41,036 bases of DNA. It comes from a virus (taxonomy: Duplodnaviria; Heunggongvirae; Uroviricota; Caudoviricetes). The DNA lies in the IMG/VR virus record IMGVR_UViG_2778261637_000006; one strand, written 5' to 3'. Shown here one piece after another: positions 25,035 to 29,293 of the stretch. The first letter of the stretch is position 1. Every line of letters begins with the position of its first letter. The notes beneath the pieces were generated by a model. It saw only the letters and a program-made list of their open reading frames with translations. It did no database searches and was not told the DNA's origin. Both the position numbers and the translations under genes were made by a program.

Positions 25035-25772
25035 TTACGTACCCACACAGCTTGCCCCTCCCCATGAGAGATAACGCGGGGCCAGCGTGAACAGGATGCG
25101 CTGGGGATAATGACGGTTCTCCCGCCAGCTGGCAGTGCTGCGTCCGGCATTCACCGTGGCGACATGACCAAACCAGCGGGTGCTGTCCAGCCCTTTTTGT
25201 GATGCAAGCCGCCTGTCCCGCTGTACCCAGCCCAGACCACCGTTATAGCCCGACAGTGTCATGGCCATACGCTCGCAGTCACTGGCGGCGCTGACGCGCT
25301 GCCACAGCCAGCGGTCATAGCTGACCAGCGCCCGGATGGCCCATGCCGGATTAAATGGCTCACGGCTGTTAAGCCCCGGCATCAACTGACTTATCCAGTC
25401 GGCGGTGGCGGGCATGAACTGCGCCAGTCCCTGAGCGCCAACCGGCGAGATCGCATCAGGTCGCCAGCCGCTTTCCTGATGCAGTTGCGCAGCGAAATCA
25501 GCCACCGGCGCAGACAGTCCCCATTCAAGCCGGGCATTACGGATCACATCATCGCGATACTGCAGCGCTGCCTGCGGAGGCTGCGCTGCGCGGGCCTGAC
25601 TGAAGAAGCCGCCACACCAGAGCAACATTGCGACAAAGAATACCCGTGCCATATGAACCAGAAAGGTCCCGGCGCGGACTGACAGGCGTTCGGTTCTGAT
25701 GAAGACCCTAAAGGCTTCGAAAGCCAGTTTCAGGGACATGCATACAATCCAGGTGATCTGCGGCCAGTTCAT
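25035..25772 (-). CDS. Endolysin, lytic transglycosylase (SLT domain) with N-terminal signal/anchor
   Basis: SLT motif AAQLHQESGWRPDAISPVGAQGLAQFMP; hydrophobic MARVFFVAMLLWCGGFF; ATG at 25772 is 2 nt after the holin stop, internal start at 25652 also possible. Confidence 0.8.
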   Translation of the reverse strand: MNWPQITWIVCMSLKLAFEAFRVFIRTERLSVRAGTFLVHMARVFFVAMLLWCGGFFSQARAAQPPQAALQYRDDVIRNARLEWGLSAPVADFAAQLHQESGWRPDAISPVGAQGLAQFMPATADWISQLMPGLNSREPFNPAWAIRALVSYDRWLWQRVSAASDCERMAMTLSGYNGGLGWVQRDRRLASQKGLDSTRWFGHVATVNAGRSTASWRENRHYPQRILFTLAPRYLSWGGASCVGT

Positions 25773-25774
25773 GA

Positions 25775-26125
25775 TTAAAGCCCCATCGCAACAGCCAGAC
25801 AGACCGCTGCAACAATCAGTGCACGGCGGATTAACGCAGCAGAAAACACCAGGTGAAGGCCGGTCTGTACCGGGAAACGCCCATCAGCCATCAGCCTGTC
25901 GTCATGTTTCAGGTACTGACCGGGACGGGCTTTGGGGAAGAGCGAACGGTCAAGCCAGTAACCCAGCACTGCTGCCAGCGTGATGAGTGCCAGCTTGTAG
26001 ATCACAACAGGCAACTGCTGTGGCGAGACCAGAGCGATGGTGCCCAGCAACAGCACTGAGGTCAGCAGCCAGCCGCTGAGGCGAGGTTTTTTAACAGGGG
26101 GAATGAATTTTTTCAGGTTTTTCAT
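25775..26125 (-). CDS. Putative holin
   Basis: 116 aa from ATG at 26125, preceded by AAGGAGA SD; basic N-terminus and two predicted TM helices; directly upstream of endolysin. Confidence 0.65.
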   Translation of the reverse strand: MKNLKKFIPPVKKPRLSGWLLTSVLLLGTIALVSPQQLPVVIYKLALITLAAVLGYWLDRSLFPKARPGQYLKHDDRLMADGRFPVQTGLHLVFSAALIRRALIVAAVCLAVAMGL

Positions 26126-26255
26126 GTGTGTCTCCTTGTCTGGTGGAGACAGCATCACAAATACAGGGCGCGAAGGATTTTAAAGCGCGTTAAGAGAGCC
26201 GGGGATACGGGATGTGCAGGATAAACGATGAATTATTCACAGAGGAGAATACGAT

Positions 26256-26999
26256 ATGACGCAGACACTGAATCCGGTCATCACTGTCACCGTGTCCGGT
26301 CCTGTGGGCAGCGGTAAAAGTTACATATTGGCGCGGATAGAGGAAGTGGTGAAACAGGAATTCGGGGGCAGCGTCATTGTCGATGCTGCAGACGTAGATG
26401 ATGAGCGGCGTATGAGTGGCGATGATCTGACGACCTGGCAGAAGCCACGGGGTGGCACAGTGATCAGGCTGGAGGAATACACGGGACAGGGCCTGTTGTC
26501 ATACGGCGAGGAGCGTATCTGTCGGACGAATGAGCTGCTGGATGTTATATGCCCCACGGGCCGGCAACCCTGGATACTGCCCGATGCACTGCATGCCACC
26601 ATTGCGGCACTGATGACAGTTTACGATCAGGAGCTGCTCATGAAGGAGCTACGTAAACTCACCGGTCAGCCAACAGAATGTTTTTCTGCCCCGAAGTACG
26701 GGAAACAGGAACACATCCCGGTGAACACGCTCCCCGTTAACCAGCCTCCCCGGTTCTTCGACGAATACATTCTGACACCGGAAAATAAAGCTGAGCACGA
26801 AGAGATCAAAGCGGCGTTGTTCCGGGAAATCAGGAAGATTGCTGAAATGCAACTGGGGGGCGGGCTGGACAGAGTGATGGCGAGAGGAGAATGGGAGTCG
26901 CTGTTTGAAAGAGTTTCCCCGGAATTACTTCCCCTCGCACTGGCTATCGGGATTATGCAGACAGCGGATAAACCTCACTTACGTTCATTAAACACGTAA
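26256..26999 (+). CDS. P-loop NTPase/kinase-like protein of unknown function
   Basis: 247 aa; Walker A VSGPVGSGKSY at residues 13-22, Walker-B-like SVIVDAADVDDE; GAGGAG SD; opposite strand to the adjacent late genes. Confidence 0.7.
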   Translation: MTQTLNPVITVTVSGPVGSGKSYILARIEEVVKQEFGGSVIVDAADVDDERRMSGDDLTTWQKPRGGTVIRLEEYTGQGLLSYGEERICRTNELLDVICPTGRQPWILPDALHATIAALMTVYDQELLMKELRKLTGQPTECFSAPKYGKQEHIPVNTLPVNQPPRFFDEYILTPENKAEHEEIKAALFREIRKIAEMQLGGGLDRVMARGEWESLFERVSPELLPLALAIGIMQTADKPHLRSLNT

Positions 27000-27379
27000 C
27001 GCATAATCCGGGATACGCATTCAGCGATGACTGCATTTTCACCGGTTTTTACTGCATCCAGAAGTGACTCTTTAAATGGTGCGGGCCGGGGCTGCAGAAG
27101 GGTCGGCGTGGCATTGAGCAGACGGAGCGTTTTTTCCGTGAGGACGACATCAGCCGCTCCCACAGCCAGCAACTGAGAGTAACGAATATAGCTGTTATCC
27201 CGAAGCCATATCAGCGTATCAATAAAATACCGGCACTTTTTCTGGTCGTGATCAACCTGGTCCGGGATATCGAAAAAACCAGAATAAATCAAAACCTGAG
27301 GTGCCGGATGCGTGTTCAGTAATCGGCAGAATATTTTGCCGGTGAGTGCATAAAAATCATCATTTAAGGAGTGCATCAT
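26975..27379 (-). CDS. Hypothetical protein (134 aa)
   Basis: Non-repetitive ORF convergent with the P-loop gene (25-nt overlap); no clear Mor/C-family HTH. Confidence 0.45.
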   Translation of the reverse strand: MMHSLNDDFYALTGKIFCRLLNTHPAPQVLIYSGFFDIPDQVDHDQKKCRYFIDTLIWLRDNSYIRYSQLLAVGAADVVLTEKTLRLLNATPTLLQPRPAPFKESLLDAVKTGENAVIAECVSRIMRYVFNERK

Positions 27380-27593
27380 GAATCCCCGATTAACGTTAAC
27401 AGAACATCAGCGCCGTGCTGAAGCAGTGAACAATGTTCTGGAAGATATTATCCGGTTACATCGCGGAGAACTGAGTGTCTGTCGTGCCGCTTTTCATTTT
27501 CAGGGAATACAAAAGCAGTTTGATACTTCTGTTTTTGCAGAAGGTATTACTTATGCCCTGGACCGGATAAGGTCAGAAAATCGCCCCGGATAA
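27378..27593 (+). CDS. Hypothetical small protein (71 aa)
   Basis: ATG with AAGGAG SD 6 nt upstream. Confidence 0.5.
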   Translation: MNPRLTLTEHQRRAEAVNNVLEDIIRLHRGELSVCRAAFHFQGIQKQFDTSVFAEGITYALDRIRSENRPG

Positions 27594-27784: not shown

Positions 27785-28549
27785 ATGAAAATGAAGACAT
27801 TACCCATCGTTCCATGGATTGGTGGCAAACGTCGCCTGGCAAAACACATCCTGCCGCTGTTTCCGGCGCATGAATGTTATGTGGAGCCGTTTTGTGGGGC
27901 AGCAGCGCTCTATTTTCTTAAGACACCCGGCAAGATCGAAGTCATCAATGATATCAACGGTGAACTGGTGAATCTGTACCGGGTGGTAAAGCATCACCTG
28001 GAAGAATTTGTCCGCCAGTTCAAATGGGCGCTGGTCAGCCGTCAGATCTACAAATGGCTGCAGATCACCCCGGAAGAAACACTGACGGATATCCAGCGTG
28101 CGGCACGGTTCTACTACCTTCAGAAGCAGGCGTTTGGCGGCAAGGTGGCAGAGCACAGCTTCGGTACCTCCACCACATCCCCGCCACGCTTCAACCTGCT
28201 GCGTATTGAAGAAGAACTGTCAGCAGCACACCTGCGGCTTTCCAGAACAGTCATAGAACACATGGACTGGCAACAGTGCATTGAGCGTTATGATCGTCCG
28301 CACACACTGTTCTACTGCGACCCACCGTACCTGGGTACGGAAGGCTATGGTGTGGATTTTCCTGAAGGGAACTACTCGCGGCTGGCAGAGCTGGCCCGGT
28401 GCATCAGAGGAAAAATGATAATTTCGGTGAACGATATCCCACAGATGCGCGAGGTGTTCACTGGACTGAACATACAGACAGTGAACATCAACTACAGTCT
28501 GGCGGGGAAATCTACGCCGCGCCGTGAACTGGTAATCTGCAACTTCTGA
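27785..28549 (+). CDS. DNA N6-adenine methyltransferase, Dam-like
   Basis: 254 aa; AdoMet motif FCGAAALYF then catalytic DPPY (FYCDPPYLG) in the order typical of Dam-type enzymes. Confidence 0.85.
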   Translation: MKMKTLPIVPWIGGKRRLAKHILPLFPAHECYVEPFCGAAALYFLKTPGKIEVINDINGELVNLYRVVKHHLEEFVRQFKWALVSRQIYKWLQITPEETLTDIQRAARFYYLQKQAFGGKVAEHSFGTSTTSPPRFNLLRIEEELSAAHLRLSRTVIEHMDWQQCIERYDRPHTLFYCDPPYLGTEGYGVDFPEGNYSRLAELARCIRGKMIISVNDIPQMREVFTGLNIQTVNINYSLAGKSTPRRELVICNF

Positions 28550-28552
28550 AAC

Positions 28553-28585
28553 AAAACCGGAAAGCACAATGCTTTCCGGTAAACC
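28553..28585 (-). terminator. Hairpin between convergent Dam and repressor genes; likely terminator for the repressor transcript
   Basis: Perfect 10-bp stem ACCGGAAAGC/GCTTTCCGGT, 5-nt loop; on the minus-strand RNA followed by UUUGUUU. Confidence 0.5.
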
Positions 28586-28665: not shown

Positions 28666-29004
28666 TCAGCCTGCGAGTTTGCTTGGTTTGGGTTGAATGA
28701 AGACTTTGCCGACCTCAAGAATTGCCCTCCGTTGTTCGGGGCTCATTTCGTCGAATGCATCCATTAACTCTTTCTTTTCTTGTGACACATAAGGTGCAAC
28801 AACAGGCTGACTCCGCACCCCAGTAACTACATACAAAATATCTACACCGATTTCTGATAGTGCAGATAACTGCACTGCAGTAGGAGAAGTGCGATCTTTT
28901 TCCCAATCAATGAAAGTTCTCTTTGCCACACCTATAGCATCAGCCAACCCTTGCTGTGTAAGAGATAGACGCTCTCTTTCTTCTTTAATACGTAACCCGA
29001 TCAT
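28666..29004 (-). CDS. Prophage repressor candidate, XRE-family HTH
   Basis: 112 aa from ATG at 29004; HTH LSLTQQGLADAIGVAKRTFIDWEKDRTSP; divergent from the early operon. Confidence 0.75.
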   Translation of the reverse strand: MIGLRIKEERERLSLTQQGLADAIGVAKRTFIDWEKDRTSPTAVQLSALSEIGVDILYVVTGVRSQPVVAPYVSQEKKELMDAFDEMSPEQRRAILEVGKVFIQPKPSKLAG

Positions 29005-29028
29005 GTGAGTTTTTCTGCACTCTTTAAG

Positions 29029-29057
29029 TTGACTGGTGAGGTAATCTGCACCATAAT
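29029..29057 (+). promoter_or_regulatory. Candidate sigma70 early promoter for the ner-like/transposase operon
   Basis: TTGACT (29029..29034), 17-nt spacer, CATAAT (29052..29057); AAGGAG SD 6 nt before ATG 29105. Confidence 0.45.
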
Positions 29058-29104
29058 CTATCACACATAAGGCAAACATCATTGCATCAACAAAGGAGAC
29101 AACG

Positions 29105-29293
29105 ATGACTGCAGAACAAGTCAAAGCTCTCTTCCGCCAGCGCGGGATCACTTTCACCCGCTGGGCAGAAGAAAACGGCTACAACCGCAATGAGGTATAC
29201 CGCGTTCTCAATGGGCAGACCAAAGCCCGTTACGGTAAATCCCATGAAATCGCCGTGAAGTTGGGGCTGAAATCAACAGCTCAGGCAGCCTGA
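29105..29293 (+). CDS. Ner/Cro-like small DNA-binding protein
   Basis: 62 aa, first gene of the early operon, HTH-like ITFTRWAEENGYNRNEVYRVLNG. Confidence 0.55.
   Translation: MTAEQVKALFRQRGITFTRWAEENGYNRNEVYRVLNGQTKARYGKSHEIAVKLGLKSTAQAA

Follow-up and report, generated by a model that had tools for sequence, protein, structure and literature searches.

Gene organization of the locus

The DNA analysed here is a stretch of 41,036 nucleotides from a member of the Caudoviricetes (IMG/VR record IMGVR_UViG_2778261637_000006; referred to as the window). Judged by sequence identity, the window is a BcepMu-like transposable prophage of Escherichia coli, because the region was 96.7% identical to that of Escherichia phage PhiKM (classified as Bcepmuvirus) and matched a prophage of E. 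coli SK1144 with 100% identity. An open reading frame (ORF) for a 247-amino-acid (aa) protein with an N-terminal P-loop, which was the focus of this study, is located between the lysis genes and the repressor gene on the strand opposite the late operon, in an accessory part of the phage; this layout agreed with that described in an earlier note made from the sequence alone. The protein was found to consist of a conserved miniature module, related by profile comparison to the end domains of Ead/Ea22-like phage proteins, and of helical parts that are exchanged among relatives. The features of the locus are as follows.

25035 to 25772, minus strand: SLT transglycosylase, a lysis gene, to the left of the P-loop gene
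25775 to 26158, minus strand: holin, at the head of the late/lysis operon and oriented away from the P-loop gene
26159 to 26255: divergent intergenic region of 97 bp between the holin gene and the P-loop gene
26256 to 26999, plus strand: 247-aa P-loop ORF including the stop codon, mosaic accessory protein (phrog_3787, NCBI annotation, and selection)
26256 to 26480, plus strand: residues 1-75 of the P-loop ORF, miniature P-loop module (conservation, AlphaFold2, and hhalign)
26481 to 26660, plus strand: residues 76-135, helical module (..PWILPDALHATIAALMTVYDQELLMKELRKL), recurring in the relatives P0025 and P0027
26661 to 26996, plus strand: residues 136-247, low-confidence linker (136-175) and C-terminal helical module (predicted local distance difference test, pLDDT, below 50)
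26975 to 27379, minus strand: 134-aa ORF (phrog_2266)
27378 to 27593, plus strand: 71-aa ORF (phrog_4490; function unassigned)
27785 to 28549, plus strand: D12-class Dam DNA adenine methylase (PF02086, E=5.9e-29), last gene of the same-strand group
28666 to 29157, minus strand: helix-turn-helix repressor, to the right of the Dam methylase gene

A Ner-like protein and the transposase are encoded further rightward, beyond the repressor.

The 247-aa ORF as a gene under purifying selection

The 247-aa ORF begins with an ATG at position 26256, 8 nt downstream of a Shine-Dalgarno sequence of its own (GGAG; 26244-26247, plus strand), as the earlier note had recognized, and GGAGGA was kept upstream of the gene in distant relatives. 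The NCBI annotation (PGAP) includes this gene (WP_000194949.1), and the protein matched phrog_3787, a family with no assigned function, over its whole length (E=3.8e-164; residues 1-247 aligned with positions 1-242 of the 242-position profile). Pairwise ratios of non-synonymous to synonymous substitution rates (dN/dS; Nei-Gojobori) among alleles were 0.16-0.35 for the whole gene, and 0.06-0.6 (mostly 0.1-0.4) for the sub-regions encoding residues 1-75, 76-135, and 136-247. In the comparison of residues 76-135 with a divergent 141-aa allele, dS was ~1.1 and dN was ~0.24 (dN/dS, ~0.2). Since the annotation, the end-to-end match to phrog_3787, and a dN/dS below 1 all indicate more than a chance reading frame, the 247-aa ORF is a genuine gene under purifying selection. 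The G+C content at third codon positions (GC3) was 0.61, and the values for the holin, SLT transglycosylase, and transposase genes were 0.63, 0.68, and 0.64, respectively; lower values were found in the 134-aa ORF (0.50), the 71-aa ORF (0.33), and the repressor gene (0.38). A literature search with the accessions of this protein found nothing.

A miniature P-loop module at the N-terminus

The N-terminal Walker A motif proposed by the earlier note was confirmed: GPVGSGKS occupies residues 15-22. An exhaustive phmmer search of 1.84 billion representative sequences found 55 proteins, and, outside the near-identical E. coli alleles, the match was limited to residues 1-75. The lengths of these relatives ranged from ~75 to 364 residues, and their C-terminal parts were unrelated or reordered. 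In an alignment of 43 sequences (referred to as A1), G20 and K21 were invariant, G15, G18, S22, I28, and W61 were conserved in at least 90%, and E50 was found in most; a second alignment (A3; 20 sequences) showed nearly the same conservation, but with I28 invariant. K63-P64 was also conserved. The P-loop residues were thus kept at the protein level across relatives with 30-55% identity. A Walker-B-like motif was present, as the earlier note had it, at residues 39-45 (VIVDAAD), but its acidic residue was not a family feature, since D43 was replaced by E, V, I, C, T, or a gap among relatives.

AlphaFold2 with the 43-sequence alignment gave a confident structure for residues ~8-72 only (pLDDT of ~90), while the single-sequence prediction was poor (pLDDT of 45). 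The module is arranged as a strand (8-13), the P-loop (15-22), a helix (21-37), and two further strands (39-43 and 68-72). Among the features of a canonical P-loop nucleoside triphosphatase (NTPase), the Walker A pattern (GxxxxGK[ST] after a strand) was present; on the other hand, no conserved Walker B (hhhhD/E) was found in the family alignments, and family profiles did not recognize a full α/β core (at least five strands and ~150 residues or more). Matches in Pfam, NCBIfam, and PDB sequences were all below the cut-off and limited to the strand-loop-helix of Walker A and the next strand, and the module is covered by no Pfam or NCBIfam model. The best sub-threshold PDB matches were ATP-binding cassette (ABC) and PilT ATPases (residues 1102-1144 of the nucleotide-binding domain of P-glycoprotein and 136-166 of PilT). 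The ABC_tran match was limited to residues 4-52 and scored 13.6 bits (cut-off, 25), and LSGGQ was absent from the 247-aa sequence. Nucleotide kinase profiles with LID and nucleoside monophosphate (NMP)-binding regions were unmatched: phrog_2107 and uridine kinase gave E=0.15 and 0.2, respectively, over ~30 residues, and no clear homology to a housekeeping kinase emerged from the profile check. The best matches to defence profiles (PADLOC-DB v2, containing no systems described after 2023) were mad8 (E=0.0046) and SngB (E=0.028), and the role in abortive infection suggested by the earlier note therefore found no counterpart among these known defence families. Because conservation ends at approximately residue 75, the aspartate varies, and every profile match is sub-threshold, the module lacks the defining features of a complete NTPase, kinase, or ABC ATPase, contrary to the earlier note, which had recognized the right motif and then read too much into it by inferring an NTPase or kinase that has a partner.

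In NCBI, five related proteins (P0017, P0019, P0024, P0091, and P0122) bear names such as "ABC transporter ATPase", "KAP family NTPase", and "P-loop NTPase fold protein", the first of these names being that of the 141- and 158-aa alleles. These proteins were alleles or fragments (46-158 aa) of the P-loop gene, and such names are misleading, founded on the Walker A motif alone.

Mosaic organization of the C-terminal part

Residues 85-135 recurred C-terminally in relatives (residues 200-248 of P0025 and 211-240 of P0027), and residues 136-247 were replaced or missing in the 158-, 141-, and 182-aa alleles. The C-terminal 168 residues had no match in a search of PDB sequences, and tblastn of this part against phage genomes found PhiKM only. 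The protein is, therefore, a mosaic of a conserved mini-module and helical modules that are swapped or reordered among relatives.

The 182-aa alleles (P0011 and P0015, with clusters of ~59 member sequences) resembled the 247-aa protein with two in-frame deletions, which are bounded by short repeats (..DDER and ..GEER; ..NELL and ..QELL). The first of these deletions takes out W61 and the third strand of the mini-module.

The module in other phage proteins

When the module was compared with phage genomes by tblastn, an 82-aa stand-alone homologue was found in Vibrio phage 1.101.O, between the genes for thymidylate synthase and dihydrofolate reductase, and weaker matches were found to the C-terminal ~70 residues of Ead/Ea22-like proteins from phiV10, D6, and other lambdoid phages. 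The module profile scored 55 bits with the Vibrio phage protein and 24 bits with phiV10p48. A profile search of 5.8 billion proteins gave 535 matches, many of which were PF13935 (Ead_Ea22) proteins and many others proteins of 70-90 aa. Comparison by hhalign of a profile from the BcepMu-type and stand-alone modules with one from the Ea22-type end domains, the two having no sequences in common, gave a probability of 98.4% (E=5.1e-15) over 70 columns. The best PHROG for four stand-alone homologues was phrog_3787, at positions ~6-75 (E=1.8e-8 to 8.8e-11), as it was for the Vibrio phage protein (E=7.7e-4). P0162, an intermediate stand-alone protein, had matches to phrog_3787 (at positions 9-73; E=1.8e-8) as well as to the Ea22-type phrog_11761. 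These comparisons of sequence profiles showed that the module is an autonomous, portable, phage-specific domain homologous to the Ea22-type end domains.

The stand-alone homologues (70-89 aa) were complete genes, tightly packed among their neighbours, either in arrays of small early or accessory genes or just 5' of HNH and terminase genes. The 247-aa protein did not match PF13935, the N-terminal/coiled-coil signature of Ead_Ea22, for which phiV10p48 scored 141 bits; it does have the P-loop-type end domain of a subset of Ea22-like proteins. Ea22 is described as an early-expressed mosaic protein that favours lysogeny, has portable C-terminal domains, and acts by a mechanism that is not established (PMC10834534, PMC7093339, PMC8614690), and the variant with a P-loop end domain is not mentioned in these papers. 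A single mini P-loop domain, not described previously, is thus common to the P-loop gene, to a large subset of the Ea22-like proteins, and to numerous very small phage proteins.

Stand-alone mini P-loop genes were located at 2471-2719 of locus L032, 6004-6396 of L005, and 5001-5213 of L034-L036. Recurring spots were the gap between thyA and the dihydrofolate reductase gene in the lytic Vibrio phage, and the region upstream of the HNH, small-terminase, and large-terminase genes in two unrelated types of prophage.

The convergent 134-aa ORF

The 134-aa ORF is convergent with the 247-aa ORF and, as noted earlier, overlaps it, the two having 25 bp in common (26975-26999). It belongs to phrog_2266 (E=6e-44), with a 53% identical homologue in Serratia, and had no match in the PDB sequence search. 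The label "DUF2513", carried by the Serratia homologue in UniRef, was not reproduced by Pfam and was discarded. In the related loci L015 and L019, the ORF was cut to 18 codons, with ~50 nt between the stop codon of the P-loop gene and the start of the 71-aa ORF, and it contained an in-frame stop codon in L007; the P-loop gene was intact in all three. It was found in 499 of 5426 complete E. coli genomes and was missing from at least 71 of the 570 genomes with the P-loop gene. The ratios of synonymous to non-synonymous changes between its alleles were 0:6, 1:5, and 2:6 (dN/dS of ~1).

A type II toxin-antitoxin system consists of two obligately linked, intact genes, and such linkage was not found here. 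Because the 134-aa ORF was deleted or interrupted by a stop codon in relatives and had a dN/dS of ~1 while the P-loop gene was kept, the toxin-antitoxin pairing suggested by the earlier note is unlikely. The 134-aa ORF behaves as a dispensable insertion on the opposite strand of a plus-strand gene group, and not as a partner; where it is deleted, the P-loop gene is followed directly by the 71-aa ORF.

Position of the gene and variation of the region

The gene with the N-terminal module was always divergent from the holin gene and ~100 bp from its start (24 IMG/VR contigs and several E. coli genomes), and the same position next to the holin was found in L027, L028, and L030, in which the holin was 64-68% identical. 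Of the 5426 complete E. coli genomes, 633 had the holin and 570 had the P-loop gene, as detected by its first 225 nt; the P-loop gene was carried by ~90% of such prophages in E. coli. It was absent from Klebsiella phage KP12 and from BcepMu, and a GTDB scan gave two loci only. Based on the fixed site beside the holin, the ~90% prevalence, the core-like G+C content, and the dN/dS of 0.2-0.3, the P-loop gene looks like a resident gene, and not like a recent moron; the earlier note had found its position and orientation to suit a moron. The definition of a moron suits the 134-aa ORF, which is patchy and has the lower GC3, better than the P-loop gene.

The C-terminal part of the gene and the genes up to the repressor differed between relatives, so that the variable region starts inside the P-loop gene. 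The arrangements found were as follows.

Window type: 247-aa gene, 134-aa ORF, 71-aa ORF, and dam
Eco889 type (L004 and L021-L026): 158-aa gene and two minus-strand membrane-type genes, without dam
L029: 141-aa gene, Cys-rich 173-aa ORF, and dam
L028: 314-aa gene and a lipoprotein gene, without dam
L030: 151-aa gene with dam as the very next gene

The interval between the P-loop gene and the repressor gene was a hotspot for cargo: a 196-aa membrane protein and a 328-aa protein in L004 and L021 (6500-8200), a Cys-rich 173-aa protein in L029 (6500-7030), a 225-aa lipoprotein in L028 (7000-7680), and a second, 154-aa paralogue of the 134-aa ORF in L018 (7588-8052).

Intergenic region and neighbouring genes

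Two blocks were conserved within positions 26176-26225 of the divergent intergenic region: TTTTAAAG (26179-26186), which reads TAAAAT on the minus strand, and GCAGGAT (26216-26222), located ~35 bp further upstream of TAAAAT on that strand. From its sequence, TAAAAT is a candidate -10 element and, together with GCAGGAT, could make up a late promoter that drives the lysis operon and depends on an activator. No terminator of the P-loop gene was identified.

The holin gene has two in-frame ATGs ten codons apart (26155 and 26125, minus strand; MLSPPDKETH-MKNLKK; 26123-26158), and an inverted repeat between them (GTCTCC, 26130-26135; GGAGAC, 26145-26150) includes the Shine-Dalgarno sequence of the inner start. 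In the relatives with 64-68% identical holins, the two starts were kept, as was the repeat. In this organization the gene is similar to lambda S, a dual-start holin/antiholin gene with an sdi stem.

The 71-aa ORF and the 134-aa ORF start back-to-back on opposite strands, and neither had a match in PADLOC-DB v2. For the 247-, 134-, and 71-aa ORFs together, the scans with Pfam, NCBIfam, PADLOC, and PHROGs yielded nothing beyond P-loop matches under the threshold and PHROGs without an assigned function. Pairwise dN/dS values among alleles of the 71-aa ORF were 0.2-0.7, and its product had no match in the PDB sequence search. A Com-like translational activator was considered for this ORF and dropped, because the Cys4 motif was absent from the sequence. 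Between the convergent Dam methylase and repressor genes, a hairpin with an 11-bp stem (ACCGGAAAGCAttgTGCTTTCCGGT) is followed by a T-run (28556-28580), and this is likely the terminator of the repressor transcript, perhaps a bidirectional one. The start of the repressor is uncertain: the longest ORF, of 163 aa, begins with GTG and overlaps the divergent Ner-like gene, while PGAP gives a 112-aa product in the identical SK1144 prophage.

Possible function of the 247-aa protein

We tentatively propose, with somewhat less than even confidence, that the 247-aa protein may be an accessory protein whose module binds phosphate or nucleotides and is carried on variable adaptor regions. The gene, an accessory gene of BcepMu-like transposable prophages in Enterobacterales, heads a plus-strand group (P-loop gene, 71-aa ORF, and Dam methylase) between the late-operon promoter and the repressor gene. 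Since the Gly-Lys-Ser/Thr loop is strictly conserved, the module may, probably in oligomeric form, bind a phosphate-bearing ligand, such as a nucleotide, a signal derived from one, or nucleic acid, and catalysis by the module on its own is disfavoured by its small size and variable "Walker B". The variable helical parts would provide specificity toward a partner or target, or oligomerization. The protein may then modulate phage development or the conflict between phage and host, like the pro-lysogenic Ea22 in lambda, and would be neither a kinase nor a toxin nor an NTPase of abortive infection.

Several points weigh against this proposal. GK-N replaces GK-S/T in P0027, P0049, and P0051, and, therefore, phosphate binding may not be universal. 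AlphaFold2 was confident for the N-terminal module alone, the secondary structure differed between two runs, and a fold comparison gave no significant match. No consensus sigma-70 promoter for the P-loop gene was found in the intergenic region. Internally deleted (182 aa) or truncated alleles exist in E. coli genomes, and the gene is, therefore, dispensable in some lineages. The idea of binding without turnover is drawn solely from the size of the module and its unconserved Walker B, and the phenotype of Ea22 was measured on variants with other C-terminal domains, such that its transfer to the 247-aa protein would be an analogy.

The 70-residue module might oligomerize into an active site and serve nucleotide metabolism as a minimal enzyme, either a small NTPase or a nucleotide kinase, and the conserved Gly, Lys, and Ser of Walker A, the acidic E50, the location of the Vibrio phage 1.101.O homologue between thymidylate synthase and dihydrofolate reductase, and sub-threshold matches to thymidylate kinase, uridine kinase, and adenylylsulfate (APS) kinase are all consistent with such an enzyme. 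However, the kinase and NTPase matches were far under the cut-off and covered the P-loop only, no conserved Walker B, LID, or NMP-binding region was found, and most of the other contexts of the module were arrays of small unassigned genes. A three-stranded chain of 70 residues cannot alone build the five-stranded P-loop core, and we consider a minimal enzyme of this type to be unlikely. Abortive-infection, kinase, and toxin-antitoxin roles gained no positive support, and the reading of the protein as an NTPase of defence or abortive infection, or as one half of a toxin-antitoxin pair whose other half is the overlapping 134-aa ORF, appears quite improbable. The variable accessory region with other cargo in relatives, the orientation opposite to the late operon, the weak match to mad8, and a distant homologue (P0112) that barely reaches the cut-off of AAA_21/AbiEii (27.8 against 27 bits) would fit such a system, but no PADLOC family scored meaningfully, and the 134-aa ORF was lost, interrupted, or missing beside a retained P-loop gene and showed the substitution counts given above. 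The position of the P-loop gene was, moreover, fixed across the clade with a core-like G+C content, and the module was found in lytic phages, too, and in Ea22-like proteins of the early region, an unexpected place for cargo that protects the host. 

Two further readings were considered. A role of the protein as a helper of Dam, with the P-loop gene, the 71-aa ORF, and dam forming an operon for DNA modification or against restriction, would account for the close spacing on one strand, the tight three-gene array in L015 and L019 without the 134-aa ORF, and the direct succession of the P-loop gene and dam in L030. This idea has a low probability and was set aside, because the P-loop gene and dam each occur without the other: the former was kept without dam at the locus in the Eco889 type and L028, and KP12 has dam and no P-loop gene. 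The homologues elsewhere were also unlinked to methylases, except loosely in the Vibrio phage. The ORF might, alternatively, be decaying or chimeric and without a function of its own, its 5' end being kept only for adjoining the essential late promoter and for serving as a recombination anchor of the variable cargo region; the start of the variable region within the gene, the frequent truncated and internally deleted alleles, and the conserved DNA blocks immediately upstream may be viewed in this way. We regard this as very improbable, given that dN/dS was well under 1 in each of the three parts of the ORF, the middle module with its dS of ~1.1 among them, that the P-loop residues were invariant across relatives with 30-55% identity, and that the module was also found independently of this locus. 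A more speculative and distinctly unlikely reading is a counter-defence device in three forms (alone, on Ea22-type scaffolds, and in the BcepMu-type mosaic protein), which would either soak up nucleotide-derived immune signals as a sponge or, as a decoy, mimic the Walker A lobe of ABC-type defence ATPases (the OLD, PARIS, Gabija, and Septu class) and poison their assembly. 

Approximately one in nine complete E. coli genomes carries the P-loop gene, and hundreds of lambdoid prophages carry the module on Ea22-like proteins. The recognition of one portable mini-domain links three sets of hypothetical proteins and corrects misleading names such as those cited above, and its invariant Lys21 offers a single target for probing the function of these accessory proteins. 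If the counter-defence device were real, it would provide a biochemical handle on the long-unexplained Ea22 family; if the module merely binds a common nucleotide without a phenotype, the gene would be an ordinary phage accessory gene.

Comparison with known systems

gp18-gp20 of Burkholderia phage BcepMu, three unrelated genes, occupy the same interval between the repressor and the holin and have the same accessory role within the genus; they differ in being co-oriented with the repressor and late genes, and none of them has the mini P-loop module. ABC-type and PilT/T2SSE-type ATPases are similar to the 247-aa protein in the strand, GxxGxGKS, helix, and next strand. This likeness ends after ~45 residues with all scores under the family cut-offs, and the 247-aa protein has no Q-loop, LSGGQ, Walker B, D-loop, H-loop, Asp box, or His box.

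A relationship was also found with the Ead/Ea22-like proteins (PF13935; e.g., phiV10p48, YP_512303.1), in many of which the C-terminal ~70 residues were homologous to residues 5-75 of the 247-aa protein. The two families, both of phage accessory proteins, are alike in their mosaic make-up and in having portable end domains (PMC10834534), and neither has an assigned biochemical activity. They differ in that the module is C-terminal in the Ead/Ea22-like proteins and N-terminal in the 247-aa protein, and in that the former are encoded in the exo-xis region, whereas the 247-aa gene is located beside the lysis genes of a Mu-type transposable phage. The experimentally studied Ea22 proteins (lambda and Shiga toxin phages) have other C-terminal domains.

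The minimal "P-loop prototype" polypeptides designed in the Tawfik laboratory are of similar size (tens of residues) and likewise have a strand/P-loop/helix core but no other part of the NTPase fold; they reportedly bind nucleotides, polyphosphate, and nucleic acids without turning over nucleoside triphosphates. Those polypeptides are laboratory constructs. The module of the 247-aa protein is a natural, selected phage domain, and a natural P-loop protein of 70 residues would be of interest for the origin of the P-loop fold.

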